DNA of 54,752 nucleotides. It comes from Alphaproteobacteria bacterium (GTDB taxonomy: Bacteria > Pseudomonadota > Alphaproteobacteria > SHVP01). Shown piece by piece: positions 4,144 through 34,195 of the stretch. The position numbers and the translations under genes are program-made. Numbering within the stretch: the stretch's first letter is position 1; each line of letters opens with the position of its first letter. The DNA lies in the NCBI GenBank assembly GCA_038148335.1, contig JAYQVF010000003.1:1-54752 (forward strand), read 5' to 3'. The notes below the pieces were generated by a model. The model was not told the DNA's origin. It did not search any database and was given only the letters and a program-made list of their open reading frames with translations.

Positions 4144-4173
4144 CGATTTATTCGCTCTTTGTTGGAGGAGGCT

Positions 4174-4704
4174 CTAGTGCGCGCCTTCCGGCGGATCGAT
4201 ATCTTCGCGGAGCCGGAACGACAGGTAGGCCTTGTAGATCATCCAAGTCTGTACCGGGAGGCACAGGATCACCAGCGCCACGGCGATCCACCACCAGAAC
4301 GCCACCGGGATCTTCTGGACCGGCGTCACGCGATCATTCACCTGCAGGTCGACACCGAGAATGGTGAACTGCCAGGCGATGAACACGAAGAACACCAGCG
4401 TCAGGAGGCCGGCGAACAGTTCCAGACCGCGCCGCCAATTGGGCCCGAGCCCTGCGCCGAGGAAGCCGATGCTGACGTTGCGCCGGTAAAGAAGCACCGC
4501 CGGAAACACCGAGCAGATGATGATCGGAAAGGCGATGCGCCCCCAGTCGCCGAAACCGGGAATACTGGGCCAGATCATCCAGCGCATCACGGCATCGAAC
4601 ATGGTGAGGAACGACATCGCCACCAGGGCGACGAAACCTACAGAGGCGAGCAACCGGCACAACCGGTCGAACCACCTCTGCAGGTTTTCAAGCGCGGGTG
4701 TCAT
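4174..4704 (-). CDS. dctQ: TRAP transporter small permease subunit
   Basis: 176 aa with four hydrophobic segments. Located between the binding-protein and large-permease genes. Confidence 0.85.
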   Translation of the reverse strand: MTPALENLQRWFDRLCRLLASVGFVALVAMSFLTMFDAVMRWMIWPSIPGFGDWGRIAFPIIICSVFPAVLLYRRNVSIGFLGAGLGPNWRRGLELFAGLLTLVFFVFIAWQFTILGVDLQVNDRVTPVQKIPVAFWWWIAVALVILCLPVQTWMIYKAYLSFRLREDIDPPEGAH

Positions 4705-4726
4705 CCGCTAACTCCGGAAACCGGTC

Positions 4727-5758
4727 CTAGCTGGACGAGCCGCTCCGCATCTCCTTGAGCAGCTTGACCGCCGCGTCGAACGCCTTCCGGTTGCCCGGGG
4801 TCTGGTCCGCCCACTGCTCCCAGATCTTCTTGGCGTCTTCTTCGTAGCGGGCCATTTCGGCGTCGGAGAAGGTGATCATCGTGTGCTTGCCTTCATCCTT
4901 GATCTGCTTGCGCAGGTCGACACCGGCCTTGGCATAGGCCTCACCCGAGTCCTTGGCGATGTGGATGCCGCCGTTGTCCTGAAGCGCGGCCTGCTCTTCC
5001 GGCGTCAGGCTTTCCCAGGTCTTCTTGTTCATCAGCAGCAGGAAGCCAAGCGTTCCGACCGGCACGTCGACGGTGTGCGTGACCAGCGGGAAGGTCTTGA
5101 ACGTCTGCATGCCCGACCAGCCCTGGATCACGGCCGACATCGTGCCGCGATTGAGCTTTTCGTTCATTTCGGTCGAACCCGCCGCTTCCGGCACGGCGCC
5201 GATCGACTCGAGCCAGGTGGCCTGCGTCTGGCCGACGCTGCGCACCTTCTTGTTCTTCAGGTCTTCGAGCTTGGCGATCGGATCCTTCGAGAAGACCGAC
5301 GCCGGCTCGCCGGCGAAGAAGCCGACCAGATGCGTGTCCTCGAAGCCCGAGAACAGGCCCATTTCATAAAGCTTCCAGCCGACGACCGAGGCTTCTTCTG
5401 CGCTGCGGAAGAAGAACGGAAGTTCGACGATTTCCATCTCGGGGAACTGACCCGGCGTATTGGCGGGCAGCACCCAGGCGATGTCGGCGACGCCGGCCTT
5501 GACCAGGTCGTACTGCTGGAACGGGCTCTTGCCGAGCGTGCCGCCCCAGTAGGCCTTGATGTTGTCGTCGGAGCCGATCTTCTGCAGCGCGGCGTTGGCG
5601 CGCTCGATCCACGGCGCAATGACGAAGCGGCTGCCGAAGCCGCGTTCGGACACGAACGAACCGACCTTGATTTCCTTGGCCTGCGCGATCCCGGCGGCAC
5701 CCAGTGCAACGGTACCGGCCATGAGCGCAGCCAGACAGGTTTTGGCAATAGGACGCAT
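4727..5758 (-). CDS. dctP: TRAP transporter substrate-binding protein
   Basis: 343 aa. N-terminal signal peptide (...ALGAAGIAQA/KE) followed by DctP-type periplasmic binding-protein sequence. Confidence 0.88.
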   Translation of the reverse strand: MRPIAKTCLAALMAGTVALGAAGIAQAKEIKVGSFVSERGFGSRFVIAPWIERANAALQKIGSDDNIKAYWGGTLGKSPFQQYDLVKAGVADIAWVLPANTPGQFPEMEIVELPFFFRSAEEASVVGWKLYEMGLFSGFEDTHLVGFFAGEPASVFSKDPIAKLEDLKNKKVRSVGQTQATWLESIGAVPEAAGSTEMNEKLNRGTMSAVIQGWSGMQTFKTFPLVTHTVDVPVGTLGFLLLMNKKTWESLTPEEQAALQDNGGIHIAKDSGEAYAKAGVDLRKQIKDEGKHTMITFSDAEMARYEEDAKKIWEQWADQTPGNRKAFDAAVKLLKEMRSGSSS

Positions 5759-18106: not shown

Positions 18107-19018
18107 ATGACCGGATACGCCAGAACAGCCCTTCTTCTCGCCGGCCTGACCGCGCTTTTTCTCGGCGCCGGCTTTCTGGTCGGCGGCCAGGGCGGCCTGC
18201 TGATCGCGCTCGTCCTGGCGCTCGGGATGAACCTTTTCGCCTACTGGAACTCCGACAGCCTGGTGCTGCGGATGTACGGCGCCAAGCAGGTCGGGGCGGA
18301 CAGCCATCCCCGGCTGTTCCGGCTGGTGGAGCAATTGGCGGCGCGCGGCGACCTGCCGATGCCGAAGGTCTACATCATGGAGAATGCCCAGCCCAACGCG
18401 TTCGCCACCGGGCGCAACCCGCAGAACGCCGCCGTGGCAGTCACGAGCGGCCTGATGAACAAACTGAGCGAGGCGGAACTCGCCGGCGTCATCGGCCACG
18501 AACTGGCGCACATCAAGAACCGCGACACACTGATCATGACGATCACGGCGACCATCGCCGGCGCGCTCGGCATGCTGGCCAACTTCGCCCTGTTCTTCGG
18601 CGGCCGGCGCGACAGCCCGCTGGGGCCAATCGGATCGATCGCCGTGATGATCCTCGCGCCGCTGGCGGCGATGCTGGTGCAGATGGCGATCAGCCGCAGC
18701 CGCGAGTACGAGGCCGACCGCGTCGGCGCGGAGATCGCCGGCAACCCGCTTTGGCTCGCCGCGGCGCTCGACAAGATCGCGGGCGGCGCGGCGCGGATCG
18801 ACAACGTGGCCGCCGAGAACAATCCGGCGACGGCGCACCTGTTCATCATCAACCCGCTGCACGCCCACAAGCGCGACAACCTGTTCTCGACCCACCCGTC
18901 GACCGCGAACCGCATCGCGCGCCTCGAAGCGATGGCGTCCGGCGTGGCGGGATCGTCGTACCAGACGGAAGAGCGACGCAGCCCCCGCCGCGTGCGTCCG
19001 GGCCACCTGCCGCACTAG
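18107..19018 (+). CDS. htpX: zinc metalloprotease HtpX
   Basis: ORF 17981-19018. Start moved to the ATG at 18107 ([14 protein letters not shown]...). HELAH zinc motif, NAFATG, and four TM segments typical of HtpX/M48. Confidence 0.9.
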
Positions 19019-19068
19019 TACCGACGTCGACGCTCCCCTCGGGTGCGACGATGGGGTAGAACCGGGTC

Positions 19069-20166
19069 ATGGAACTCGGAATCTTTCTCATGCCGGCGAG
19101 CGACCCGAAGCGGCCCCTCGCCGACGTCATCGACTGGAACATCGAGGTCATTCGGCAAGCGGACGCGCTCGGCTATGCCGAGGCGTGGGTCGGGCAGCAC
19201 ATCACGACGCCATGGGAGCCCCTGCCCTCGCCGCAGCAGATCATCGCCGGCGCCATCGGGCAGACGCAGAACATCCGGCTGGGCACCGGCGTCGAGGTGC
19301 TCTACCAGCAGCACCCGCTGCGGCTCGCCGCGGAGCTGATCCAGCTCGACCACATGAGCCGCGGACGGCTGATGTTCGGCTTCGGCGCGGGCGGCACCTT
19401 GACCGACGGCCAGCTCTACGGCCTCGACTTCGCCAAGGGCGAGAACGGCGCGCGGTCGCGCGAGGCGCTGGAAATCATCCTGCAGGCGTGGTCGCCCGAG
19501 GGGCCGGACGATTTCGACGGCGAGTTCTGGTCGACGCGGCGGCCGAACTACAACGATCGCTACTACTGGCACCTCAAGCCCTATGCGCCGGCAGAGCCGC
19601 GCATCGCCTTTGCCGGGTTCATGCCGAAATCGGGATCGCTGATGATCGCGGGCGAAAAGGGTTACATCCCGATGAGCTTCAACGTGGCGCCGCAGCACGT
19701 CTCGGTGCACTGGCCGTCGATCGAGGAAGGCGCGGCACGGTCCGGGCGGACGCCGTCGCGCGACAACTGGCGCCAGATCCGCGAGATCTACGTCGCCGAC
19801 ACCGACGCCGAAGCGCGCAGGGCCGTCGTCGACGGCTTCGCCGGGCGGTTCTGGAACGGGTATTTCAGCATCATCGCCGAACGGCTCGGCATCGCCGACA
19901 TGTTCCGCCGCGACGGTGCGCCACCGGACGCCAAGGTCGATGCCGCCTATCTCGTGGATCACGGCACGTGGTTCGTCGGCAGCCCGGACAAGGTCGCGAA
20001 CGAGATCGTCGACCAGTACGAACAGACCGGCGGCTTCGGCGTGCTGCTGCAGATCGGCTTCGACTATGCCGATGCGGACGCGCGCGGCGGGTGGTTCCGT
20101 TCGATGGCGCTTCTGGCCCAAGAAGTCATGCCACGGGTCAACCGGCGGCTCGGCCGCAAGACATAG
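19069..20166 (+). CDS. LLM-class (luciferase-like) flavin-dependent oxidoreductase
   Basis: 365 aa, MELGIFLMPAS...AWVGQH...LGTGV...FGFGAGG. Typical bacterial-luciferase-family TIM-barrel sequence. Confidence 0.85.
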   Translation: MELGIFLMPASDPKRPLADVIDWNIEVIRQADALGYAEAWVGQHITTPWEPLPSPQQIIAGAIGQTQNIRLGTGVEVLYQQHPLRLAAELIQLDHMSRGRLMFGFGAGGTLTDGQLYGLDFAKGENGARSREALEIILQAWSPEGPDDFDGEFWSTRRPNYNDRYYWHLKPYAPAEPRIAFAGFMPKSGSLMIAGEKGYIPMSFNVAPQHVSVHWPSIEEGAARSGRTPSRDNWRQIREIYVADTDAEARRAVVDGFAGRFWNGYFSIIAERLGIADMFRRDGAPPDAKVDAAYLVDHGTWFVGSPDKVANEIVDQYEQTGGFGVLLQIGFDYADADARGGWFRSMALLAQEVMPRVNRRLGRKT

Positions 20167-20251
20167 CGAACGCCGGGCCAGCGCTTTTCAAGGCCGGCCC
20201 GAGCCCCCATACTGCGAACGCTTTGCAGATTCGCGGATGGGAGGCCAGATC

Positions 20252-21445
20252 ATGACCAAATACGTCCATCACGACCTCAAGATCGATCCGACGCCCGAAG
20301 AGGCGGCACGCCAGGCCTTCATGACGAGCATGCGGCTGTATGTGCTGCACGACATGGCGAACGGCATGCGCACGGTCTACGAGAACGAGGTCGAACCCGC
20401 CTTCAAGCGCAAGAACCGACGCGCACCCAAGGACGGCGTCGAGGTTCATCGCGCGCTCAAGAGCGACACGACCTTCAAGTTCTATTCGTCGATGCGCTGC
20501 AACGCGCAGGAGATGGTGTTCCGCTCCATCCTGCCGACCGTCGAACGCAACCAGGACACCCTGAACAAGAAGGCGAAGGCGCTCAGCAAGTCGAAGAAGG
20601 CCAAGGGCACAGTCGACACCGACCCGAAGTTCGAGGTGCCGCGCAGCGTCGCCGCGATCGACATCCATCTGATGCCGGGCAACTACGACACCGAATACGG
20701 CCCCGACGACGTGACCCAGGGCGCGGTCTACGACAACGGCATCTCGGTCTTCAGCATGGGGTTCTTCGGCGACAATCTTGACGACATCGGCAGCTCGATC
20801 TCGCTGTTCATCAAGACGAAGTATCCCAAATTCAAGCCGGCGCGGATCCTCGACATGGGCTGCACCATCGGCCACAACACGGTGCCGTGGGCCAAGACCT
20901 TTCCCAAGGCCGAGGTGCACGCGATCGACGTCGGCGCGCCGGTGGTCCGCTACGGCCACGCCCGGGCGCAGTCCGAGGGCGTCAACGTCCACTTCCATCA
21001 GCAGAACGCCGAAGCGACGACGTTCGAGGACGAAACCTTCGACCTGATCTTTTCGTCGATGTTCCTGCACGAGGTGCCGAAGAAGGGCATCAAGAAGGTG
21101 TTCAAGGAAGCGCGCCGCCTGCTGAAGCCGGGCGGGCTGATGCTTCACATGGAACTGCCGCCGAACAAGATGCTGGGCGCCTACGACCAGTTCTATCTGG
21201 ACTGGGACTCCTACTACAACAAGGAGCCGTTCTATAAGCCGTTCCGCGACGCCGACCCGCAAGCGGTGTGCGCCGAGGCCGGCTTCGCCAAGAGCAAGTT
21301 CGTCCAGTTCATCATTCCGAGCCTGGGCCAGTACGGCACCAAGGCCGTCACCGACGCGGTCAAGCACCAGACCGGCAAGGCCGACGACCACACCGGCCGG
21401 TTTGCGGCCGGCATCCACTGGTACTGCTTCGGGGCGTGGAAGTGA
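20252..21445 (+). CDS. class I SAM-dependent methyltransferase with ~190-aa N-terminal extension (paralogue 1 of 4)
   Basis: ORF 19916-21445; ATG at 20252 preceded by GGGAGG. Motif I ILDMGCTIG, AIDVG, FDLIFSSMFLHE and LLKPGGLMLHME. The conserved pre-core string IDIHLMPGNYDTEY is shared with the paralogues. Confidence 0.85.
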   Translation: MTKYVHHDLKIDPTPEEAARQAFMTSMRLYVLHDMANGMRTVYENEVEPAFKRKNRRAPKDGVEVHRALKSDTTFKFYSSMRCNAQEMVFRSILPTVERNQDTLNKKAKALSKSKKAKGTVDTDPKFEVPRSVAAIDIHLMPGNYDTEYGPDDVTQGAVYDNGISVFSMGFFGDNLDDIGSSISLFIKTKYPKFKPARILDMGCTIGHNTVPWAKTFPKAEVHAIDVGAPVVRYGHARAQSEGVNVHFHQQNAEATTFEDETFDLIFSSMFLHEVPKKGIKKVFKEARRLLKPGGLMLHMELPPNKMLGAYDQFYLDWDSYYNKEPFYKPFRDADPQAVCAEAGFAKSKFVQFIIPSLGQYGTKAVTDAVKHQTGKADDHTGRFAAGIHWYCFGAWK

Positions 21446-21783
21446 GCGGCGACGGCAAGAAACCGTTGCGCTACAGCGTCCGCGGCAAGAAGTCCCAGTT
21501 CTTTTCCGCCGAGGGGGTCGACGAGCTGGTGTCGATCACCATGGCGCTGGCCCAGGAACTGTGGGTGGTGAAGGAGCGGCTGGCGGCCTTCGAGACGCTG
21601 GCGACCAAGAAGAAGGTCTTCACCCAGAAGGAACTGGACAGCGTCAGGTTCACCCCGGCGCAGCGCGCCAAGCTGGACGCCGAGAGCCAGGCGTTCATCG
21701 ACCGCGTGTTCTTCGTGCTGCGCGAGCGCGTCGAGGGGCTGGCCGCCGATCCTGACGAACCGGCGCCGCCGAAAGAGCCGTGA
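21442..21783 (+). CDS. 113-aa hypothetical protein, translationally coupled
   Basis: In frame with ORF 21268-21783. The GTG at 21442 overlaps the methyltransferase stop (GTGA). Predicted helical and charged (…VSITMALAQELWVVKERLAAFETLATKKK…). I recognise no family. Confidence 0.55.
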   Translation: MSGDGKKPLRYSVRGKKSQFFSAEGVDELVSITMALAQELWVVKERLAAFETLATKKKVFTQKELDSVRFTPAQRAKLDAESQAFIDRVFFVLRERVEGLAADPDEPAPPKEP

Positions 21784-22079
21784 TCGTCATCGTCGGCACG
21801 GTGCGCGTGCCGCCGGACAAGATCGATGCGGCGCGGCCGCACATGAGCGCCATGCTCGAGGCATCGCGCGCCGAGGACGGTTGCCTCACCTACAACTACG
21901 CACAGGACGTGCTCGACCCCGGCCTGATCCACGTCAGCGAGGTGTGGGAGAGCGAGGCGGCGCTGAAGGCGCACTTCACGACGCCGCACATGGCGGCGTG
22001 GCGCAAGGCATGGCCCGATCTCGGTATCGGCGAGCGCAACCTGACCAAATTCACGGCCAGCGAGTCGGAGACGATCTAG
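21780..22079 (+). CDS. ABM (antibiotic-biosynthesis-monooxygenase/Dabb fold) domain protein
   Basis: 99 aa. GTG start overlaps the previous stop (GTGA). Typical YgiN-like strings: IVIVGTVRV..., GCLTYNY, VSEVWESEAALKAHF. Confidence 0.8.
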   Translation: MIVIVGTVRVPPDKIDAARPHMSAMLEASRAEDGCLTYNYAQDVLDPGLIHVSEVWESEAALKAHFTTPHMAAWRKAWPDLGIGERNLTKFTASESETI

Positions 22080-22192
22080 CGCGTTCCCGACTCGGACGCT
22101 CGATCTCGAACGATCCTCGGTCAGGACGCCCATGAACGGGGCGCAGCGCGCGCCGGACCGCTATGATGCGGCCACATCAAGGGGAGGCCAGC

Positions 22193-23890
22193 ATGGGCGA
22201 CACCACCATTCGCAGTCACTACGTCGCGGTCGGCAACCGCCGGGTCCACTATCGGCGGGCGGGTTCAGGACCGCCGGTGGTGATGCTGCATCCCTCGCCG
22301 AGCTGGGCGAAGGGCCTGGACGCGTATACCCGCGTCTTCGCCGAGAAGTTCACGGCCATCGCCCTGGATACGCCCGGCTACGGGCATTCCGACCTGCTCG
22401 ACATGGTGAAGCCCGAGATTCCGGACTTCGCGGAAGCGCTCAAGGATACGCTGGATGCGCTCGGTATCGAGAAGTGCGGGCTGTGGGGGTCGCATACCGG
22501 GGCGTCGATCGCGATGGAGTTCACCGTGCGCTACCCGGAGCGGGTGACCGTGTTCGTCATCGACGGCTATCCGGCCTACGAGGACGCCTACCGCGAGGAC
22601 ATGACGAAGTACTACCTGCCGCCCTATGCGCCGAAGTGGGACGGCTCGCACCTGATGTACCAGTGGCACAAGTTCCGCGAGCAGTTCATCTTCTCGCCGA
22701 CCTTCCGCTGGCATCGCGATAGCCGCACGACGACCGCCGCACCGCCGCCGCCGGGCCCGATGCAGGATATGGTGCTGCCGCGGTTTCTCACCGGCGAGGC
22801 CTACAACGTCGGCTATTCGGCCGTCTTCCGCTATGCAGGCCTAGAGCCGATTTCGAAGCTGAAGGTGCCGACGTGCTTCGGCGCGCGGCTGGGCGATTCG
22901 CTGATCAAGGGCTTTCCGCTGATTGACGCGCGCAAGTCCGAAGGGTCGTGGCTGGAGGAGTTGCCGCGCGACATCGGCGAGGCGGCGCTGCGCTATCGCG
23001 AGATCCTGGAACAGCACCCGGCGCCAACCGACGCGCCGCCGGCGCCGGCTTCCGCGCCGATCGCCGGCAAGCTGAACCGCGGCCATCTCGACCTCGGGTT
23101 CGGGCAGATGGCGATGAGCAGCGCCGGGCCCGCCGACGGCGCTCCGCTGATCCTGCTGCCGCAACTGCCGGGCGACGTGTCGCTCGACGCCGGCTTCATG
23201 CTCGAACTTGCCAAGCTCGGGCATCGCGTCATCGCGCTGGACATGCCGGGCAATGGCGATTCGGACGACTGGGCCCTGCCCCACTCGATCGTCAACTACG
23301 CGGGCGCCTTTGCGGAAGCGATCGACGCGCTGGGATTCGACAAGATCGATCTTCTCGGCCACCAGGGCGGCGCTTCGGTCGCGGTGGAGTTCGTGCGTCA
23401 CCAGGCTGCACGGGTGCGCAACCTGCTGCTGTTCGCGCCGCTCGCCATGCCGGACCCCGTGCGCCTCGCCATCGCGCCGCACTATGCACCCCCGATCGAG
23501 CCCAAGTGGGACGGCACCCACCTGATCAGTCTGTGGTTCGCGCTGCGCAACGAGCAGCTGTTCTGGCCGTGGTACAACGAATCGATCCAGGCCGTGCGCA
23601 AGATCGAACCCGAAATCGACCCCAAGCTGCTGGAGCGCAAGATCACCGGCATCCTCAAGCACTACCGCAACTACCACAAAGTCTGGCAGGCGGTGTTCGA
23701 CTATCCGGTGCGCGACAACCTGCAAATGATCCCGGTGCGCACGCTGGTGGCGTCGATCGAGGACGATCCGTTCCATCGTTTTGCCCCCGAGGCGGCGGCG
23801 CTCGTGCCGGGCGGCGACTATGAGATGGTCGACTTCCAGAACGACGCCATCGCCACCGCCGTGGACAGGTTCCTCAAGGCCGGATCGTGA
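22193..23890 (+). CDS. double-module alpha/beta-hydrolase-fold protein (elbows G-S-H-T-G-A and G-H-Q-G-G-A)
   Basis: ORF 22163-23890; ATG at 22193 preceded by AAGGGGAGG. N-module: LHPSPS, LDTPGYGHSD, WGSHTGAS. C-module: LPQLPG, LDMPGNGDSD, LGHQGGAS. Confidence 0.85.
   Translation: MGDTTIRSHYVAVGNRRVHYRRAGSGPPVVMLHPSPSWAKGLDAYTRVFAEKFTAIALDTPGYGHSDLLDMVKPEIPDFAEALKDTLDALGIEKCGLWGSHTGASIAMEFTVRYPERVTVFVIDGYPAYEDAYREDMTKYYLPPYAPKWDGSHLMYQWHKFREQFIFSPTFRWHRDSRTTTAAPPPPGPMQDMVLPRFLTGEAYNVGYSAVFRYAGLEPISKLKVPTCFGARLGDSLIKGFPLIDARKSEGSWLEELPRDIGEAALRYREILEQHPAPTDAPPAPASAPIAGKLNRGHLDLGFGQMAMSSAGPADGAPLILLPQLPGDVSLDAGFMLELAKLGHRVIALDMPGNGDSDDWALPHSIVNYAGAFAEAIDALGFDKIDLLGHQGGASVAVEFVRHQAARVRNLLLFAPLAMPDPVRLAIAPHYAPPIEPKWDGTHLISLWFALRNEQLFWPWYNESIQAVRKIEPEIDPKLLERKITGILKHYRNYHKVWQAVFDYPVRDNLQMIPVRTLVASIEDDPFHRFAPEAAALVPGGDYEMVDFQNDAIATAVDRFLKAGS
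23543..23581 (+). repeat. 39-nt exact repeat, copy 1 (inside the C-module of 22193-23890)
   Basis: CTGCGCAACGAGCAGCTGTTCTGGCCGTGGTACAACGAA is identical to 25213-25261 and encodes LRNEQLFWPWYNE. Confidence 0.9.
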
Positions 23891-25554
23891 CGCTCAGCAG
23901 ACACTTCGTCACCGTCGGCAACCGGCAGGTGCATTACCGGCGCGCGGGTGCCGGCGCACCGGTCGTGCTGTTGCATGCAAGTCCAAGCTCGTCCTGGGCG
24001 CTGACGACGTTCATCGAGACGTTCGGCCGTGAGTTCGCGGCGATCGGCCTCGATACGCCGGGCTATGGCCTGTCCGATCCCCTGGCGATCGAAACGCCGG
24101 AGATCGGCGACTATGCCGAGGCGCTGGCCGAGACGCTGGACGCGCTGGGCATCGGACGCTGCGCGCTGTTCGGCTCGCACACCGGCGCCACAATCGCGCT
24201 GGAATTCGCCCGGCGCTATCCGGAACGCGTCTCGGTGGCGCTGTTCGACGGCTACCCGGCGTGGCCCGAGCACGAGCGGCTCAACATGGAGCGGGAGTAT
24301 CTGCCGCCGTGGCAGCCGGTGTGGACCGGCCTGCATCTCGTCGATTTCTTTCTGCGCTACCGCGAGATGAGCCTGTACTGGCCGTGGTACGACCGGCGCA
24401 AGGCGACCCGCGCCAAAGCGGGCCTGCGAAATCTGGACATGCTGCACCGGATGACCCTGGCCGGCTTCGTCGCGGGGCGCGGCTACGCCAAGGGCTATGC
24501 CGCGGTGTTCCGCTACGACCAGATCGGCGCAGTGCGCGATCTCAAGGTTCCGACGTGCTTTGCCGGTCGCGCCGAGGATTCGCTCAACGAATCGCTAAGA
24601 CTTCTGGGCGACCTGCAGGATATCTGCTGGCGCGAGACCCTGCCCGCAGACGACCATGCCGCGGCGCTGCGCTATCTCGAGATCATTCGCGAGCGGCCCG
24701 GCGACGGCGAGACGCCGCTGCCCGAAACGCGGCCCCTGACGGGACGCATCGCGCGACGATTCGTCCGGTGGTCGGGCGGCGACGTCCTCGTGCGCGAAAC
24801 CGGTAACGGCGACGGCACGCCGCTGATCGTCCTGCCGCAAGTGCCGGGATCGAGCGAGCCTTACGAGACGCTGATGCAGGCGCTGTCGCGCGGCCGCCGG
24901 GTCATCGCCATCGACCCGCCCGGCAACGGCGATTCGGACCTGGCCGCGGCCTTGCCGTTTGCGCAACTTGCGCAGGCGGTGACGGAGGTTCTCGACGGCC
25001 TCGGCCTGGCGATGGTGGACCTCTACGGCCATCAGGGTGGCGCGACGCTCGCCGCGGCGGTGGCGGCGCTGGCGCCGGGGCATGTCCGGCGAATGGTCCT
25101 CGATGCACCGCCGCTGCTGCCGGAGGACCTGCGCGACGCGCTGGCACCCCACTATGCGGCGCCGATCGAGCTGGACGCCGAGGGCGGCCATTTGTTGAAA
25201 CTATGGCATGCCCTGCGCAACGAGCAGCTGTTCTGGCCGTGGTACAACGAAACCCTGGCCGCGGTCCGCGCGGTCGAGCCGGACCTCGAACCGTCACGGC
25301 TGACCGTGCGCGCGATCGGGATTCTGAAGCAGCATCGCAACTACGCACCGAGCTACGCCGCCCTGTTTGCGGCCGATCTCGGCGGCTGGCTCGACACCAT
25401 CGCCTGTCCGACGCTGGTGGCGGCAGCGGAGAACGATCCGTTTGCGGCGTTCGCGCCCGCCGCCGCCGCGCGCATCGCCGGCGCAGAAACGGCCACCCTG
25501 CCGATCCCGGCCGTGGACCGGGCGGTGCCGATCCGGAACTTTCTGGAAAACTAG
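23887..25554 (+). CDS. double-module alpha/beta-hydrolase-fold protein (elbows G-S-H-T-G-A and G-H-Q-G-G-A)
   Basis: 555 aa. GTG start overlaps the previous stop (GTGA). Same N/C module pattern as 22193-23890. Confidence 0.85.
   Translation: MTLSRHFVTVGNRQVHYRRAGAGAPVVLLHASPSSSWALTTFIETFGREFAAIGLDTPGYGLSDPLAIETPEIGDYAEALAETLDALGIGRCALFGSHTGATIALEFARRYPERVSVALFDGYPAWPEHERLNMEREYLPPWQPVWTGLHLVDFFLRYREMSLYWPWYDRRKATRAKAGLRNLDMLHRMTLAGFVAGRGYAKGYAAVFRYDQIGAVRDLKVPTCFAGRAEDSLNESLRLLGDLQDICWRETLPADDHAAALRYLEIIRERPGDGETPLPETRPLTGRIARRFVRWSGGDVLVRETGNGDGTPLIVLPQVPGSSEPYETLMQALSRGRRVIAIDPPGNGDSDLAAALPFAQLAQAVTEVLDGLGLAMVDLYGHQGGATLAAAVAALAPGHVRRMVLDAPPLLPEDLRDALAPHYAAPIELDAEGGHLLKLWHALRNEQLFWPWYNETLAAVRAVEPDLEPSRLTVRAIGILKQHRNYAPSYAALFAADLGGWLDTIACPTLVAAAENDPFAAFAPAAAARIAGAETATLPIPAVDRAVPIRNFLEN
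25213..25261 (+). repeat. 39-nt exact repeat, copy 2 (inside the C-module of 23887-25554)
   Basis: Identical 39-mer to 23543-23581. The flanking bases differ on both sides. Confidence 0.9.
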
Positions 25555-26384
25555 CCGGCCAGGCGGCGCTTGAGAAACTCGTCGATCAGGCGGGCCATGG
25601 TTTCCGGTTGGTCCTGGCTGACGCGATGGTCGCAGCCTGCCACGTCGTGCGCTTCCGATCCGGGAATGAGATCCTTGAGGCGCGCCATCTTGTCGGCGGG
25701 GAATACGTGAGAGCTGTCGCCGCGAAGAATGAGAGTCGGACAAGCGACCTTGATCTCATCCCACATGTCTTGTTCGAGAATGCCTTCGGTGTATTGCGCC
25801 CCCGAAGGATAGTAGAACCACTCGACCTCGCCGGAATCCAAGTGGCGAAAGCTGTGCTCGGCGTAGTGGTCCTTCATGTCCTGCGACCACAGGCTGCTGA
25901 ACGGCATCGCCGCCTTGGCGGTGGCAAAGTCGGGAAAGCGATGCTTGCTGACGATCTCGTCCTTCACGTCGGCGCTGATCTGCTTGTCGAGCGAAAGACC
26001 GGGGTCCGCAACGACAAGGGCGGAAACGCGCTTCGGGTATTGCGACGCCACCAGCAACGCAATGTTGCCGCCGGTGGCAGCGCCGACCAGGACCGCCTTG
26101 GGCACCTGCAGTTCGTCCAGCAGTTCCATCAAGTCCCAAACGTATTCCTGCAGGACGTAGCCGCGTTCGGGGTAATCCGAGTGGCCGTGGCCGCGCGCGT
26201 CCGGCGCGATGAAACGGTTGGGGAGCGTGCTCGCCTCGACCACGAAATCCCAGACCCGGGCATTGGTGCGGTTGGGGTGCAGGAGGACGATCGGCGGCGC
26301 CTCGCCCGGCCAATCGAGGTAACTGACCCGCAGGCGGGACAATCGAATCTCCTCGGGGATCGCCGGACGGGTGAAATCGACCAT
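25551..26384 (-). CDS. single-module alpha/beta-hydrolase-fold protein with Ala at the elbow (G-A-A-T-G-G)
   Basis: ORF 25551-26420 has a TTG start; the ATG at 26382-26384 is preferred but uncertain. Motifs: LLHPNRTNARVW, APDARGHGHSD, VGAATGGN, and a late His in GCDHRV. Confidence 0.75.
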   Translation of the reverse strand: MVDFTRPAIPEEIRLSRLRVSYLDWPGEAPPIVLLHPNRTNARVWDFVVEASTLPNRFIAPDARGHGHSDYPERGYVLQEYVWDLMELLDELQVPKAVLVGAATGGNIALLVASQYPKRVSALVVADPGLSLDKQISADVKDEIVSKHRFPDFATAKAAMPFSSLWSQDMKDHYAEHSFRHLDSGEVEWFYYPSGAQYTEGILEQDMWDEIKVACPTLILRGDSSHVFPADKMARLKDLIPGSEAHDVAGCDHRVSQDQPETMARLIDEFLKRRLAG

Positions 26385-26470
26385 GCCGCGATGGGTATTG
26401 TGTCGCCGTTCGCGGGTCAAGGAAATTGCAACGCTCTGCGGGCTGCGGCGGGTGTAGTAAAGTCCCGGCC

Positions 26471-27445
26471 ATGCCCGACGCCGCCCCGCCTGCGCACAAG
26501 CGCATCCTGGTCATCAAGCACAGCGCGCTGGGCGACTTCATCCTGGCGCTGGGCGCCTTCAGAGCCATTCGGAACCACCATCCCCCGGCGCACATCACGC
26601 TTCTGACGACCGCGCCCTACGCGGATATGGGGCGGGCCTGCGGCTGCTTCGATGCGGTCGAGATCGACCCCAAGCCGAACGCTTTCGAATGGGCCAAGTG
26701 GCTGCGCCTGCGCCGCTTCATCGTGAAGAGCGGCTTCGACCGGATCTATGACCTGCAGCACAGCGACCGGACGCATGCCTATTTCCGGTTCTTCGGGCGG
26801 CGGCCGCCGGAATGGTCGGGCATTGCGCGTGGATGTTCGCACCCGCACGCCAATCCGCGGCGCAACGAGATGCACACGCTGGAGCGCCTTGCGGAACAAC
26901 TGGCCGACGCGGGCATTACGGAGACGCCGGCGCCGGACCTGTCATGGCTCAGGGACGACATCGGAAGTTTCGCGATTGCCGGACCCTACGCGCTACTGGT
27001 TCCCGGCGGCGCGCCGCATCGGCCGGAGAAACGCTGGCCTGCCGATCACTATGCGGCATTGGCGCGACGCCTGGCAGACGCAGGCTTGACGCCCGTCGTC
27101 CTGGGCGGCGACGCAGAGGCAAAGGAGATCGAGCGGATCGTAGAGGGCGAAACCCGCGCGCTCAGCCTGCGCGGCCGCACCTCCCTCGCACAGATTGCGG
27201 AACTCGCGCGTGGCGCGACGGTTGCAATCGGTAACGACACCGGACCGATGCACATCATTGCCGCCGCCGGGTGCCCTTCGGTGGTCCTTTTTTCGAAAGC
27301 ATCGATCCCGGCGCAGACACAGCCGCGCGGCGCCGCCGTCGCCGTTCTGCAACGCGACCGCCTGGACAGTCTGGATGCGGAAACGGTGTACGGCGCCACC
27401 TGCAACCTCGTCCCGACGCTTGCGCGGGCTATTGCGCCAGCCTGA
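26471..27445 (+). CDS. glycosyltransferase family 9 (LPS heptosyltransferase-like)
   Basis: ORF 26426-27445; ATG at 26471. KRILVIKHSALGDFI and GNDTGPMH motifs typical of ADP-heptose:LPS heptosyltransferases. Confidence 0.85.
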   Translation: MPDAAPPAHKRILVIKHSALGDFILALGAFRAIRNHHPPAHITLLTTAPYADMGRACGCFDAVEIDPKPNAFEWAKWLRLRRFIVKSGFDRIYDLQHSDRTHAYFRFFGRRPPEWSGIARGCSHPHANPRRNEMHTLERLAEQLADAGITETPAPDLSWLRDDIGSFAIAGPYALLVPGGAPHRPEKRWPADHYAALARRLADAGLTPVVLGGDAEAKEIERIVEGETRALSLRGRTSLAQIAELARGATVAIGNDTGPMHIIAAAGCPSVVLFSKASIPAQTQPRGAAVAVLQRDRLDSLDAETVYGATCNLVPTLARAIAPA

Positions 27446-29605: not shown

Positions 29606-30727
29606 CTACGCCGGCTTGCGCGCGTCCAGGACGTAAATCCGCATCCCCGGGATATCGGTCGGCGCCAGCGCCACGGTGGCAGCGTTGTGCGAGAAGCCGG
29701 CCTCAACCGCGACCTCGGCCCAGTCGGTGTCGCCCAGCGCCGTCACAAAAGGTTCTGCGTTGTAGTGCGTGCTCCAGCCCGACATTGCCTGCGCGTAGGG
29801 AGACTTGCCTTCGTTGTGGGCGAAGTCCATGTGCAGCGCGATGCCGCCCGGCGCCAACAAGCGATAGGTTTCCTTGAGATAGTTGCGCAGCGCCTTTGAT
29901 GAAGTCTCATGCATCATGATGCATGAGGTAATGAGATCGAAGCTGCCGTCGGGAAAGTCGGTCTTCTCAGCGTTCTGCTGCGAGAAATGGACGGTATAGC
30001 CGAGCGAATCGGCCCGCTTGTGTCCGTAGCGCAGCACGGGCGCGCCGATGTCGATGGCGTGGACCTCGGCATCGGGAAACTTCGCCGCGGCGAGACAAGC
30101 GACCGGCCCCACGCCCGTCCCCATGTCGAGAATGCGTTTCGGCTTGAGGCTGGCGCAGTACTTGTCGAAGTAGGCCATGAGGTTGCGGCCGAAGCCGTCG
30201 TGATAGGGGCCACGATGCCCCCGTGCGTACATGAACGCACCCCGATCGAGCAGCGCACCCTGATAGGCGTCACCGTCGACGTATTCGGTGTGGTAGTTGC
30301 CCGGCATGACGTGGATATCGATGCCGGCGAGGTAGCGCGGCGCCTTGAGCGTCGGATCGAGCCGGAGCGTGCCCTTGGTGCGGCCGGTCCTGGCAATCTT
30401 CCTGTTGAGCGCATCGTCCTGACGATCCAGCGAGTCCTGAACGGAATCCCAGATCATTTCCTGGGTCGTCCGGCTGAGCGAACCCCAGGCCTGATGGAAG
30501 GGATGCCTTTCCATCGCCTGGCGCACCTCCTTGCGATCCTGCGGCTTGCGCCCGTGCGTGCGCTCGAACGACGGCTCAACGGCCAGCCGATAGACGTCGT
30601 CGTTGCCGCCGGCAATATCGGCGGCGACGTATTCACGCAGGCGCAAGGTGAAGTCCTGGCGCGCGAGTTCGTCGTGACTGATCTCCGGGGAGGCGCCGTG
30701 ACGCGCCTGGCGGGTCATGACCTGCAT
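29606..30727 (-). CDS. class I SAM-dependent methyltransferase with N-terminal extension (paralogue 2)
   Basis: 373 aa. ILDMGTGVG, AIDIG, FDLITSCIMMHE, LLAPGGIALHMD, and pre-core IDIHVMPGNYHTEY. About three quarters identical by eye to the adjacent paralogue. Confidence 0.85.
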   Translation of the reverse strand: MQVMTRQARHGASPEISHDELARQDFTLRLREYVAADIAGGNDDVYRLAVEPSFERTHGRKPQDRKEVRQAMERHPFHQAWGSLSRTTQEMIWDSVQDSLDRQDDALNRKIARTGRTKGTLRLDPTLKAPRYLAGIDIHVMPGNYHTEYVDGDAYQGALLDRGAFMYARGHRGPYHDGFGRNLMAYFDKYCASLKPKRILDMGTGVGPVACLAAAKFPDAEVHAIDIGAPVLRYGHKRADSLGYTVHFSQQNAEKTDFPDGSFDLITSCIMMHETSSKALRNYLKETYRLLAPGGIALHMDFAHNEGKSPYAQAMSGWSTHYNAEPFVTALGDTDWAEVAVEAGFSHNAATVALAPTDIPGMRIYVLDARKPA

Positions 30728-30754: not shown

Positions 30755-31879
30755 CTATTCCGGGATGCGGGCGTCGAGAACGTACATGTGGTTACCCGGC
30801 GCAACGGTCGACATCGGCACGACGACCGCAGCGTTGTGCGAGAAGCCCTCTTGCACGGCAACCTCGGCCCAGTCGGTGTCGCCGAGCGTGCCGATAAACG
30901 GCTCCGCGTTGTAGTGCGTGCTCCAGTCGACCATCGCCTGGAGATAGGGCGTCTTGTCCTCGTTGTGCGGGAAATCCATATGCAGCGCCATGCCGCCTGG
31001 CGCCAGCAGACGCCTGGTTTCCTTGAGGTAGTTGCGCAGCGCCTTGGACGAAGTCTCGTGCATCATGATGCAGGAGATGATCAGGTCGAAGCTCTCCTCC
31101 GCGAAGTCGGTCGATTCGGCGTTCTGCTGCGAGAAGTGAATCGTGTGGCCGAGCGACTCGGCCCGCTTGTGGCCGTAGCGCAGCAACGGCGCGCCGACGT
31201 CGATGGCATGGATCTCCGCGTCGGGAAAACGTTCGGCGAAGGCGCAGGTGACCTGTCCTGCCCCTGAACCCATGTCGAGAATCCGCTTGGGCCGAAATCC
31301 CGGACGCGCCTTGTCGAGGTAGGCGAGAAGATCGCGGCCGTACGAATCGTGATAGGCGCCGCGCATGCCGCGGGCATAGATGAACGCGCCGCGGTCGAGC
31401 AGCGCGCCCTGATAGGCGTCGTCGTCGGTGTATTCGGTGTGGTAGTTGCCAGGCATGCAATGGATGTCGACGGCAGTGAGGTAGCGCGGCGCGGCGACCG
31501 AAGGGTCGAGACGCAGGGACCCCTTCGCCTTGACCACTTGGGCGATGCGCTTGTTGAGCGCATCGTCCTGACGATCAAGAGAATCCTGCACCGAATCCCA
31601 GATCAGTTCCTGAGTCGCGCGATTCAGCGAGCCCCAGGCCTGGTGGTAGGGATGGCGCTCCATGGCCTGACGCACTTCCTTGCGGGACGCCGGCTTGCGG
31701 CCGTGTGCGCGCTCGAAGGCAGGCTCCACATCCAGGCGGTAGACGTCATCGTTGCCGCCGACGATGTCACCGGCGACGTATTCGCGCAGGCGCTGGGCGA
31801 AGTCCTGCCGCGCCATCTCGTCGTGACTGATGTGGGGGAACGCGCCGTGGGGTGCCTGCCGGGTCATCATCGTCGCCAT
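30755..31879 (-). CDS. class I SAM-dependent methyltransferase with N-terminal extension (paralogue 3)
   Basis: ORF 30755-31951. Start moved to the ATG at 31877-31879 (MATMMTRQAPHG...), with AAGGAGG about 6 nt upstream. The N-terminus is colinear with paralogue 2. Confidence 0.85.
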   Translation of the reverse strand: MATMMTRQAPHGAFPHISHDEMARQDFAQRLREYVAGDIVGGNDDVYRLDVEPAFERAHGRKPASRKEVRQAMERHPYHQAWGSLNRATQELIWDSVQDSLDRQDDALNKRIAQVVKAKGSLRLDPSVAAPRYLTAVDIHCMPGNYHTEYTDDDAYQGALLDRGAFIYARGMRGAYHDSYGRDLLAYLDKARPGFRPKRILDMGSGAGQVTCAFAERFPDAEIHAIDVGAPLLRYGHKRAESLGHTIHFSQQNAESTDFAEESFDLIISCIMMHETSSKALRNYLKETRRLLAPGGMALHMDFPHNEDKTPYLQAMVDWSTHYNAEPFIGTLGDTDWAEVAVQEGFSHNAAVVVPMSTVAPGNHMYVLDARIPE

Positions 31880-31949
31880 GGGTGCCTCCTTGGTTACGCG
31901 CCAGTCTAGCGCCCAGCCGAGAAGCCCGCCATCAACCCGAACCGGCAGC

Positions 31950-31977
31950 AAAAAGCCGCCTGGAAGGCGGCTTTTTG
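31950..31977 (-). terminator. rho-independent terminator (symmetrical A/T-flanked hairpin)
   Basis: AAAAAGCCGCC-TGGAA-GGCGGCTTTTT lies 32 nt downstream of the stop of 32009-32866 (minus strand). The T-run follows the stem on the minus strand. Confidence 0.7.
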
Positions 31978-32008: not shown

Positions 32009-32866
32009 CTAGACCCGCGTGCGCGGGAAGCCGTGTTCGGCCATGTCGTTCCACACCATCTGGTCGACGATCTTGCCGTCCCGCAAGGTGAAGCGATCGA
32101 TGTAACGGATGTTCTGATACTTCGGCCCGTTAGCCTTTTCACCTTGCAACGTGCCGTAGCAGAAGACGATCGTACCGTCGTCGGCTTCGATTTCATCGAA
32201 GCGCTGGAAGGCCTTCCAGCTGTTCTGGGTGCGCCCCTTCTGGAACGCGATGAGTTCGTCGGGCGTGGTGAAACGGTGGCCGCCCATGAAGATCGTGAAG
32301 AAGCCCTTGCCGATCATCGACCGGGCCGTGTCGAGATCGCGCGCCTCCATGGTGCGGAGGTATTTGAGCACGAACTTCGACGCCTCGCCTTCGGCGGTCT
32401 CGTCGCCGCGCGCGGGCGGGTTCGGCGGGATGGGGCGATCGCCCGGACCGAAGCCGTGCTCGCCCATGTCGTTCCACACCATCTGGCTGACGAACTTGCC
32501 GTCGCGCACCAGAAAGCGGTCGACGAAGCGAATGCCGTTGTACTCCGTCTTCATGTCGAGCTTCTTGCCGTAGAGCGTGCCCCACGCATAGACGACCGTG
32601 CCGTCCGACACGTCGGCCTCGTCGAACCGGTCGAACACCTTGAGCGCCGTTCCCTGGCGGCCTTTGCCGTAGGCGATCAGGTCCTCAAGCGTGTCGAAAT
32701 GGCAGTCGCCCGGAAACACCATGTGGAAACCCGGCGCCAGCATTGCTTTGGCGGCGGCGAGGTCGCGCGCCTCCATGGTACGCAGGTAAGTCAGGACCAT
32801 GTGCGACGCGGATCCCCGGATGAGCAGGGATTCGGCGTCCTGCGGGGCTTCGGCGAGATTGGCCAT
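32009..32866 (-). CDS. tandem (2x) SnoaL/NTF2-like domain protein
   Basis: ORF 32009-33079. Start moved to the ATG at 32864-32866 (GGAGGA upstream). Two homologous halves, each with YLRTMEARDL...RF(V/I)DRF.(V/L)RDGK(F/I)V.QMVWNDM.EHGF. Confidence 0.8.
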   Translation of the reverse strand: MANLAEAPQDAESLLIRGSASHMVLTYLRTMEARDLAAAKAMLAPGFHMVFPGDCHFDTLEDLIAYGKGRQGTALKVFDRFDEADVSDGTVVYAWGTLYGKKLDMKTEYNGIRFVDRFLVRDGKFVSQMVWNDMGEHGFGPGDRPIPPNPPARGDETAEGEASKFVLKYLRTMEARDLDTARSMIGKGFFTIFMGGHRFTTPDELIAFQKGRTQNSWKAFQRFDEIEADDGTIVFCYGTLQGEKANGPKYQNIRYIDRFTLRDGKIVDQMVWNDMAEHGFPRTRV

Positions 32867-32919
32867 AGGGGTGTCCTCCGTTGGTTGAGCGGACCTTAGC
32901 AGGCGATCGCCGCCAGCCG

Positions 32920-33171
32920 CTAGTGATCGGCCTCGTCGGCCCGCAGGAGGGTCAGAAGGAGTGAAAACACCTGAAACCAGACCACGCCGAGAAGCAGGAT
33001 GAAGAGCACGACGCCGGGGATGATCAGGATCGACAGGCCACGCGCTTCGAGCACCGGCAGGCCCGCGGCCACGAACCACAGCCAGCCGCCGACCCCGAGG
33101 GCGAAAGTGACGAGCCCGGCCCCGCCGAGGCTGAGCGCAATGCGCCAGGTAATGAACGGACCTTCTTCCAT
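32920..33171 (-). CDS. small membrane protein (2-3 TM), function unknown
   Basis: ORF 32920-33309; start moved to the ATG at 33169-33171 (MEEGPFITWRIALSLGGAGLV...). Hydrophobic, codon usage consistent with coding. Confidence 0.45.
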   Translation of the reverse strand: MEEGPFITWRIALSLGGAGLVTFALGVGGWLWFVAAGLPVLEARGLSILIIPGVVLFILLLGVVWFQVFSLLLTLLRADEADH

Positions 33172-33298
33172 GCCCCCACTGCCTCGGACTTTCGGCTCCA
33201 GAACCCTTGGACTATGGTACCGCCCGCACGGGCGGTCCAGCCGACCCTCGCACGTCGCCGATGCGGCGCCAACCGGACCATCAACAGGACGAGATATC

Positions 33299-34195
33299 GT
33301 GAGCAGCAACGGACACGGCCCCTATCCCACCCTCAAGGACCAGCTCGCCGGCGACGAGATCATCATTGCGCCCGGCTGCTTCGACGCATTTTCCGCGATG
33401 ATGGTCCAGCAAGCCGGCTTCTCGGTGGGCTACATCACGGGCGCCTCGATCGCCTATACCCGGCTCGGACGGCCGGACATCGGCCTGGTGTCGATGAACG
33501 AGGTCGCGATGACGGTGTCCCTGATTGCCGAACGGGTCGAGATTCCTCTCATCGTCGACGGCGACACCGGCTGGGGCAATGCCATCAACACCCAGCGGAC
33601 CGTGCGCCTGTTCGAGGCCTCGGGAGCGACCGCGATCCAGCTCGAGGACCAGACCTTTCCCAAGCGCTGCGGCCACCTGAAGGGCAAGAGCCTGATCCCG
33701 GCCGCCGAGATGGTGGGCAAGATCAAGGCCGCCGCCGACGCACGGCGCGCGGACGATTTCCTCATCATCGGCCGTACCGACGCCATCGCGGTCGAGGGCT
33801 ACGACAAAGCGATCGAGCGTGCCGAACGCTATGTCGAGGCCGGCGCCGATATCCTGTTCATCGAAGCCCCGGAAAGCGAAGACCAGCAGCGCGACATGTG
33901 CGCCCGCTTCAAGGGCCGGGTGCCGCTGCTGGCCAACATGGTCGAGGGCGGTTCGACGCCGCTCAAAACCGCCGCCGACCTGCAGGAACTCGGCTATTCG
34001 ATCGTGATTTTCCCGGGTGGCCTGTTCCGCGCCTACAGCCTGCTCGCCGGCGAGTACTTCGCGAGCCTGAAGAAGCACGGGACGACCAACGCGTTCCGCA
34101 ACCGGATGTACGATCTGAAACAGATCAACGATCTGCTGGGGACGGACGAAATCCTGAAGAACGGCGCGCAATACGACGCTGCGAACTTCGAATAG
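33299..34195 (+). CDS. isocitrate lyase/PEP mutase superfamily enzyme (methylisocitrate-lyase / carboxyvinyl-carboxyphosphonate phosphorylmutase-like)
   Basis: In frame with ORF 32999-34195, with a GTG at 33299. Motifs: APGCFDAFSA, IVDGDTGWGN, EDQTFPKRCGHLKGK, GADILFIE. Confidence 0.85.
   Translation: MSSNGHGPYPTLKDQLAGDEIIIAPGCFDAFSAMMVQQAGFSVGYITGASIAYTRLGRPDIGLVSMNEVAMTVSLIAERVEIPLIVDGDTGWGNAINTQRTVRLFEASGATAIQLEDQTFPKRCGHLKGKSLIPAAEMVGKIKAAADARRADDFLIIGRTDAIAVEGYDKAIERAERYVEAGADILFIEAPESEDQQRDMCARFKGRVPLLANMVEGGSTPLKTAADLQELGYSIVIFPGGLFRAYSLLAGEYFASLKKHGTTNAFRNRMYDLKQINDLLGTDEILKNGAQYDAANFE

Follow-up and report, generated by a model that had tools for sequence, protein, structure and literature searches.

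The nucleophile-His-acid layout of the α/β-hydrolase fold, which is among the most studied of enzyme scaffolds, is treated as nearly universal. Non-catalytic proteins of this fold have been described, among them ABHD5/CGI-58 (in which the Ser is replaced by Asn), the NDRG proteins and DPP10, and a homodimeric fluoroacetate dehalogenase described by Kim et al. in Science in 2017 reportedly shows half-of-sites behavior, with one site working at a time. A survey of the fold describes the His after β8 as “totally conserved” (PMC11878206). In HOD, a cofactor-independent dioxygenase of this fold, a His-Asp pair alone acts as the base and the elbow residue is dispensable, and in relatives of the HOD/AqdC type the elbow is naturally Ser or Ala (PMC10548524). 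Here we analyzed a 54,752-nt stretch of DNA from an alphaproteobacterium (GenBank assembly GCA_038148335.1, contig JAYQVF010000003.1, positions 1 to 54,752; hereafter the window), in which two adjacent genes on the plus strand, B1 (22193-23890) and B2 (23887-25554), encode proteins of 565 and 555 amino acids, each made of two fused α/β-hydrolase-fold modules. A preliminary description had reported His and Gln at the nucleophile elbows of these modules and the absence of the catalytic His from most of them, and we find that this observation is real and beyond chance. We put at roughly even the chance that B1 and B2 are non-canonical enzymes with one live site, in the N-terminal (N) module, and a C-terminal (C) module that is a fused structural relic, an interpretation that draws on patterns of residue conservation. 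The other members of their family, too, are probably non-standard enzymes and not inert scaffolds.

Fold, elbows and pockets of B1 and B2

Pfam Abhydrolase_1 matched B1 and B2 in two separate stretches each (E values of 4e-19 and 5e-31), and with scores of 69.7 and 108.8 bits (cut-off 25.8) both proteins belong to the α/β-hydrolase fold. In AlphaFold2 models the order of strands and helices fits a sheet of eight strands, flanked by helices, with a cap between β6 and β7. The models scored pLDDT 96.6 and pTM 0.94 for B1 and pLDDT 95.5 and pTM 0.93 for B2; neither contained a low-confidence segment, and the proline-rich linker between the modules had a pLDDT of at least 95. Each protein is predicted from these models to be a rigid, compact two-domain body. 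The N module of B1 (residues 1-273, 22193-23011, with β1 to helix F at residues 7-273 of the model) holds a conserved non-canonical pocket and the C module (residues 295-565, 23075-23887) a degenerate one. A longer B1 reading frame from an ATG at 22163 is possible, but the start at 22193 is favored because homologues of exactly 565 amino acids (79-97% identity) cover 100% of the query. The GTG start of B2 overlaps the TGA stop of B1, as had been described. Decay into pseudogenes was ruled out, both open reading frames (ORFs) being intact with dN/dS values of 0.07-0.33.

Both proteins are cytoplasmic and related to the epoxide-hydrolase/dehalogenase branch of the fold. Among the 50 Protein Data Bank (PDB) matches listed by Foldseek, single-domain structures reached target-normalised TM-scores of 0.59-0.76, and the matches included epoxide hydrolases, dehalogenases, fluoroacetate dehalogenase, chloroperoxidases and esterases. 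There was no tandem counterpart among these 50, each of which aligned with part of the chain (279-426 columns). By sequence, PDB entries matched B1 over its first ~150 residues at most.

The elbow register was fixed in two ways. A phmmer alignment to the C-C hydrolase BphD placed His101 of B1 under the catalytic Ser, and in the AlphaFold2 models a single residue separates β5 from helix C, namely residues 101 and 391 in B1 and 98 and 383 in B2; in B1, His101 stands between strand 95-100 and helix 102-113. The elbow residues are His in the N modules (CAT at 22493-22495 in B1 and CAC at 24178-24180 in B2) and Gln in the C modules (CAG at 23363-23365, Gln391 of B1, and CAG at 25033-25035, Gln383 of B2), exactly at the codons first reported, and the possibility that the Gln elbows were alignment artefacts did not survive this check. 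None of the four modules has a Ser, Cys or Asp nucleophile at the elbow. Ser100 and Thr102 were considered as nucleophiles and rejected, as the apex between strand and helix is residue 101 and position 100 is variable (Arg in 45 and Ser in 41 of 93 B-type sequences, with other residues in the rest).

The acid after β7 is present in all four modules (Asp235 and Asp525 in B1, Asp231 and Asp517 in B2). The G-H-G motif, which had been reported missing from at least three of the B modules, is in fact missing from all four; each module of A1 and A2, a paralogous double-module pair at 14305-17722 (plus strand), has it. When the eight modules were aligned, those of B1 and B2 were ~8 residues shorter in the G-H-G region, and in the model of the B1 N module the loop from β8 to the last helix has only 3 residues (258-260). 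A β8-loop His was found in 23 of the N modules and 13 of the C modules of 144 wider-family representatives at 50% identity. Two smaller motifs of the preliminary description fared differently: the L-P-Q-[LV]-P-G of the C modules was read correctly (LPQLPG and LPQVPG), while H-[PA]-S-P-S-S fits B2 (HASPSS) but not the end of the B1 motif, where the last Ser is Trp (HPSPSW).

The N modules of B1 and B2 share a set of seven residues, H33, S35, H101, T102, D124, Y208 and D235 in B1 numbering (signature string HSHTDYD in B2), that is near-invariant in ~120 close relatives. Across the 93 B-type sequences His101 and Thr102 (22493-22498), Gly103, Gly125, Arg162, Tyr208 (22814-22816) and Asp235 (22895-22897) are invariant, and His33, Ser35 (22295-22297) and Asp124 (22562-22564) are each kept in 88; near-invariant positions number 31 in the N module and 16 in the C module. 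Ser35 lies two residues past the His of the H-G-type motif after β3. Asp124 is the last residue of β6 (118-124), an alternative acid site, and one dehalogenase subfamily places its catalytic acid at the end of β6. Tyr208 is the cap-helix member of the set, and Asp235 occupies the canonical acid position, on the loop that joins strand 227-232 to helix 236-245. The B2 codons, which were checked, are His98-Thr99 at 24178-24183 for the elbow and next residue, S32 at 23980-23982, D121 at 24247-24249, Y204 at 24496-24498 and D231 at 24577-24579.

Members of the set co-occur among the 144 representatives. When the elbow His of the N module was present, Ser35 was found in 84% of sequences, Asp235 in 96% and Tyr208 in 92%, compared with 49%, 51% and 51% when it was absent. 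The C module behaved likewise, with Ser in 56% versus 8%, Thr in 68% versus 20% and Asp in 88% versus 54%. Four actinobacterial members (an Actinomycetes metagenome-assembled genome [MAG], Micromonospora and two Nocardioides; loci L037, L066, L073 and L082) carry HSHTDYD in both modules, and an Acidimicrobiales member (L067) carries it in the C module only. Because the set is kept or lost jointly and is duplicated in actinobacterial members, the N-module set behaves as a functional site and not as a relic. The proposal that these proteins are catalytically stripped thus fits the C modules, which have lost the set, and fails for the N modules with their invariant polar residues. Two of the strains with the set in both modules, Nocardioides gansuensis WSJ-1 and N. 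gilvus XZ17, are in culture and would be good entry points for experiments.

In the C modules of B1 and B2 the equivalents of the set are Pro, Leu/Val, Gln, Gly, Phe/Asp, Trp/Tyr and Asp; in B1, Pro323 replaces the His, Leu325 the Ser and Phe414 the post-β6 Asp. The elbow Gln is not kept by all orthologues, which have Q or W in close relatives of B1 and Q, N or G in those of B2, even at ~70-85% identity. The three commonest residues at this position in the 93 B-type sequences are N (51), H (18) and Q (15), and the single commonest is Asn among the 120 closest relatives and Gly in the wider family. Because close orthologues vary here, the Gln reflects drift and not design. The asymmetry between N and C modules is nevertheless real and old, and the N modules are the better conserved: mean column entropy is 1.65 for N and 2.16 for C modules, within-class identity is 43% and 32%, and dN/dS against three orthologues is 0.07-0.17 and 0.12-0.33, values that are rough with dS near saturation. 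With dN/dS at 0.12-0.33, the C modules are still under purifying selection.

A proposed single-site mechanism and its alternatives

If B1 and B2 are enzymes with one live site, the N pocket would be catalytic with neither a classical Ser/Asp/Cys nucleophile nor the β8 His, and no intermediate would be bound covalently to Ser or Asp. His101 at the elbow, held by Asp124 and/or Asp235, would most likely be the general base, acting on water, on the substrate or on the neighboring Ser35, and the C module would be a permanent structural partner that takes the role of the second subunit in homodimeric relatives. The His-Asp catalysis of HOD is a precedent for catalysis by such a pair alone in this fold (PMC10548524). 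Judging from the gene neighbors, the substrate may be a small organic acid or acyl-CoA-type metabolite, which in the window would be processed together with the upstream monooxygenases, the methyltransferase and the A-type paralogues. A bolder form of the proposal is that the general-base His moved from the β8 loop to the elbow, where it is held by the β6/β7 Asp and activates the oxyanion-loop Ser35 or the substrate, and that a two-site fused dimer became a one-live/one-dead machine; we regard this as unlikely. Within it, Ser35 could be the nucleophile and His101 its base, as fold topology and the joint retention and loss of the two residues would allow.

Several points weigh against a live N site. 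A missing β8 His is what a dead enzyme would be expected to show, and 26% of wider-family members have no N-elbow His. Conservation overall is highest at the cap residues His153/His443 and Arg162/Arg452/Arg178, which persist regardless of the set and may mark a binding or interface function with no need for catalysis. The proximity of Ser35, His101, Asp124 and Asp235 is a prediction from fold topology. The placement of Ser35 leans on a provisional pairwise alignment to a DhaA sequence, a lead only, in which Ser35 falls under Asn41 and Thr102 under Trp107, residues that point into the dehalogenase active site. Public databases give the relatives only generic or automatic names (“alpha/beta hydrolase”, “pimeloyl-ACP methyl ester carboxylesterase”, “haloalkane dehalogenase”), and the enrichment of gene neighbors given below was judged against a rough expectation and not a computed background.

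The first of these points also speak for the view of the preliminary description, that B1 and B2 are catalytically dead pseudo-enzymes that bind a ligand or scaffold the A-type proteins, which would do the chemistry. We consider this unlikely but worth serious attention, as it accounts for four B modules with neither a Ser/Asp/Cys nucleophile nor a β8-loop His, for cap His and Arg residues that are conserved whatever the state of the elbow set, and for the adjacency of A and B genes in the closest clade, with a 4-nt overlap in locus L013. The behavior of the N modules argues the other way. In pseudo-enzymes the former catalytic positions usually drift, and such relaxed constraint is seen in the C modules and not in the N modules, whose set is invariant, kept or lost jointly and duplicated in actinobacterial members. 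A dedicated partnership with the A1 and A2 products is also made less likely by the genomic record: an A-type gene lies directly upstream of the B-type gene in the closest clade, but only 11 of 79 B loci have an A-type gene within 10 kb, so B is not an obligate partner of A. The A-type proteins themselves share the elbow His, which makes the A pair non-canonical too and leaves no obvious active counterpart for a dead B to serve.

Elsewhere, B-type genes keep the company of other enzymes. In 66 more distant loci we counted genes within 400 bp of a B-type gene, mostly on the same strand, and found FAD_binding_4 oxidases in 11 loci (several of them separated from B by no more than 9 nt), AMP-binding ligases in 11 and acyl-CoA dehydrogenases in 8; at least 5 loci have a three-gene set of ligase, B and oxidase. 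Within 5 kb of B, Amidohydro_2 occurred in 16 loci and Cupin_7 in 14, and the long methyltransferase family of the window lay within ~1.6 kb of B in seven. On plasmid pJE1 (Sphingomonas) B is accompanied by an FAD oxidase, a cupin, a methyltransferase and an ABM-like protein, and on plasmid pSMS3-3 (Antarctobacter) a small ORF, a methyltransferase and a truncated B are overlapping genes. Opp-type ABC transporters near 40 of the 66 loci were not counted because they are very common in these taxa. In our judgement these are the surroundings of an enzyme in the metabolism of a small organic acid or an acyl-CoA-type compound, and they do not look like those of a dedicated partner of A.

Some of these neighbors, namely the cupins, the FAD oxidases and the luciferase-like and ABM monooxygenases, would also suit a different interpretation, in which conserved His, Asp and Tyr residues serve as ligands of a metal ion or another cofactor and the N module is a metal-dependent enzyme (an oxygenase or lyase) or a sensor. 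His33, His101, His153, Asp124, Asp235 and Tyr208 are typical metal ligands and all are conserved; against this, the His of an H-G-type motif is usually structural, and we know of no metal-dependent member of the fold and found none in the literature. We therefore regard a metal site as rather improbable. It is very improbable that B1 and B2 are ordinary Ser/Asp hydrolases with a triad elsewhere, for although the automatic annotations as carboxylesterase or dehalogenase and a Ser beside the elbow His (Ser100 in B1, with an equivalent in B2) would suit it, position 100 is variable, the elbow register is fixed, no NCBIfam cut-off is reached and the β8-loop His is rare in both modules, so that a hidden canonical triad is essentially excluded.

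Family history, paralogues and gene neighborhood

A family search at E<=1e-30 returned 617 representatives at 50% identity. Because nearly all of the best 150 of these 617 span 500-620 amino acids, the two-module fusion is fixed. This, together with the pTM values of 0.93-0.94, upholds the fixed two-module architecture in the earlier idea of an obligate pseudo-dimer, but the pairing with Gln that had been part of that idea is not a design feature. A 23-sequence alignment located 79 genomic loci, in Alphaproteobacteria (Rhodospirillales, Acetobacteraceae, Rhizobiales, Kordiimonas and roseobacters), Burkholderiales, Actinomycetota and one Methylomirabilota MAG; the closest genomes are those of uncultured Alphaproteobacteria. 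The public names for the family (esterase, dehalogenase, tropinesterase) are probably wrong. In the literature we found no relevant report on the His-elbow motif, on tandem or fused α/β-hydrolase proteins or on plasmid pJE1.

The site is present in the N module only in 83 of the 144 representatives, in both modules in 24, in the C module only in 10 and in neither in 27. Homologues with the N site only also occur in Humitalea sp. 24SJ18S-53 and Pseudooceanicola atlanticus 22II-s11g. Given these numbers, the simplest history is that of a two-site ancestor repeatedly losing one site, usually that of the C module. The ancestor probably had two equivalent pockets, each defined by the seven-residue set, and the proteobacterial lineage that includes this window has retained only the N-module pocket.

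Like B1 and B2, A1 and A2 each match Abhydrolase_1 in two stretches, and all four of their modules have the elbow His and the Asp after β7 as well as the G-H-G His. The A family resembles B in its two-module length, its elbow H-T-G, its H-x-S-P-x-S, the Asp after β7 and a D-G-x-H-L in the cap. It differs in keeping the G-H-G His, in having Ser at the end of β6 instead of Asp, and in a W-G-H in the cap where B has x-G-Y. Within the A family the elbow His, the next Thr and the β7 Asp are invariant in both modules, and the β8 His is kept in ~85% of members. The eight modules of the two pairs had been taken as two subfamilies; the count of eight stands, but they form three classes, with the A modules alike and B-N and B-C distinct. 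In a neighbor-joining tree the B-N, B-C and all-A groups each had 100% bootstrap support, and within the A group the N modules of A1 and A2 paired with 78%. As B-N and B-C share only 24% identity and are about as distant from each other as either is from A, the internal duplication of B is ancient. The A-N and A-C modules are 44% identical and cluster together, so the internal duplication of A was separate and younger, or its modules have been homogenised. The gene duplications that gave A1/A2 and B1/B2 are later events in the closest alphaproteobacterial clade, and in three related genomes a single A gene is followed directly by a single B gene.

Upstream of B1, on the same strand, lie a luciferase-like monooxygenase (19069-20166), a methyltransferase (20252-21445), an ORF of 113 amino acids (21442-21783) and an ABM monooxygenase (21780-22079), the families being assigned by Pfam. 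The methyltransferase and the 113-aa ORF overlap by 4 nt, as do that ORF and the ABM gene, and a 113-nt gap then precedes B1. The order of the 19069-22079 genes is conserved in five related loci (L001, L006, L007, L012 and L014). A scan of 17700-26600 for promoters and terminators gave results at chance level, and the operon structure is read from gene spacing alone. The 113-aa ORF had no Pfam or PDB match. The only PDB matches of the methyltransferase were generic class I enzymes of this kind, and its ~190-aa N-terminal extension matched nothing. It is one of three paralogous class I methyltransferases of ~370-400 amino acids in the window, each with an N-terminal extension of ~190 residues; the other two are on the minus strand (29606-30727 and 30755-31951). 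This methyltransferase family occurs on two plasmids and is often flanked by an ORF of 76-114 amino acids of no known family, in the window that at 21442-21783.

The window and its closest relatives share a conserved block of genes. It begins with a two-module nitrilase-like gene, a 222-aa membrane protein, a short-chain dehydrogenase, A1/A2 and HtpX; continues with the luciferase-like monooxygenase, the methyltransferase, the small ORF, the ABM monooxygenase and B1/B2; and ends with an opposite-strand single-module hydrolase-fold gene, GT9, aldolase II, CMD, SnoaL and further methyltransferases. The nitrilase-superfamily gene (10845-12587, plus strand) matches CN_hydrolase in two stretches and encodes a fused two-module protein. 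The Glu, Lys and Cys-type residues are found in its N half (LPEF, DKQ, FSCMDG), and its C half has Gly at the Cys position (VTGGDS) and Gln at the Lys position, which makes it a second live-half/dead-half protein of the block. Two membrane-protein ORFs are on the minus strand, one of 222 amino acids with no Pfam match (12584-13252) and one of 70 (17719-17931); the closest related loci keep the 222-aa ORF beside the nitrilase-like gene and the 70-aa ORF after A2.

The single-module α/β-hydrolase-fold gene at 25551-26420 (minus strand) converges on B2 with a 4-nt overlap, and seven related loci have an opposite-strand homologue after B2. Its elbow, G-A-A-T-G-G, has no Ser, and its β8 His is kept (GCDHRV), a pattern of Ala elbow and His-Asp pair found in some cofactor-independent dioxygenases (PMC10548524). 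Further along the minus strand, a protein of 356 amino acids (32009-33079) with two SnoaL_2-like stretches may be an internally duplicated small-domain protein. It adjoins a gene of the PEP-mutase/isocitrate-lyase family (32999-34195), and both recur in the conserved block. A canonical single-module α/β hydrolase, with a GTSLGG elbow and the His in GRGHCP, is encoded at 1971-2819 (minus strand) next to a TRAP transporter (2836-5758), so that ordinary members of the fold coexist with non-canonical ones in the region.

Comparison with described families

From their sequences, B1 and B2 appear to be a new variant of a known fold within a sizeable uncharacterised family, with a residue pattern that is unusual and well supported. 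The family, of at least 617 clusters at 50% identity, combines a His at the nucleophile position and no β8-loop His with the conservation pattern of a working site. If the bolder form of the proposal is true, hundreds of protein clusters in bacteria would have a catalytic layout undescribed for the fold. The family also shows how one site of a fused dimer decays, with both sites in Actinobacteria, the N site only in most Proteobacteria and the C site only in a few members, and in this natural system one can ask why enzymes with two bodies tolerate or favor a dead partner.

Neither protein reached the cut-off of any NCBIfam model. The top match, PRK14875 (an acetoin dehydrogenase E2 with an α/β-fold domain), gave 99.7 and 110.9 bits against 307 and covered the profile from position ~111 only, and Pfam found no lipoyl domain in B1 or B2. 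The dehalogenase model PRK03592 gave 67-83 bits against 241 and PRK03204 gave 58-61 against 466, and the elbow Asp is absent. BioH (TIGR01738), the label that JGI gives to relatives, scored 30 and 34 bits against 206.95, and the Ser nucleophile is absent. Pfam Ndr matched faintly (19-22 bits, below its cut-off of 23.3).

Epoxide hydrolases, haloalkane dehalogenases and fluoroacetate dehalogenase are among the best sequence and structure matches of each B module. The H-x-x-P after β3 in B resembles the H-G-x-P of this branch, and the C-module elbow G-H-Q/N-G-G-A resembles its G-H-D-x-G-A with the Asp replaced. Unlike these enzymes, B has His (N module) or Q/N/G (C module) in place of the nucleophile Asp, lacks the β8-loop His and joins two modules in one chain. 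The HOD/AqdC dioxygenases are non-hydrolytic members of the fold, and the B genes of the window have monooxygenase-type genes around them; we found no sequence relationship between B and these dioxygenases beyond the fold. The base in HOD is the canonical β8-loop His251, whereas B1 and B2 lack that loop and have their conserved His at the elbow.

The C modules recall ABHD5, the NDRG proteins and DPP10 in their replaced elbow nucleophile, drifting site and retained fold, but the lineages are unrelated and the dead module of B is fused to one with an intact set. A parallel to the two-module chain may be the half-of-sites fluoroacetate dehalogenase. In that enzyme the homodimer is symmetric, both sites are intact and the triad is Asp-His-Asp; a fused B chain, in which one site has decayed, would make the same arrangement permanent.

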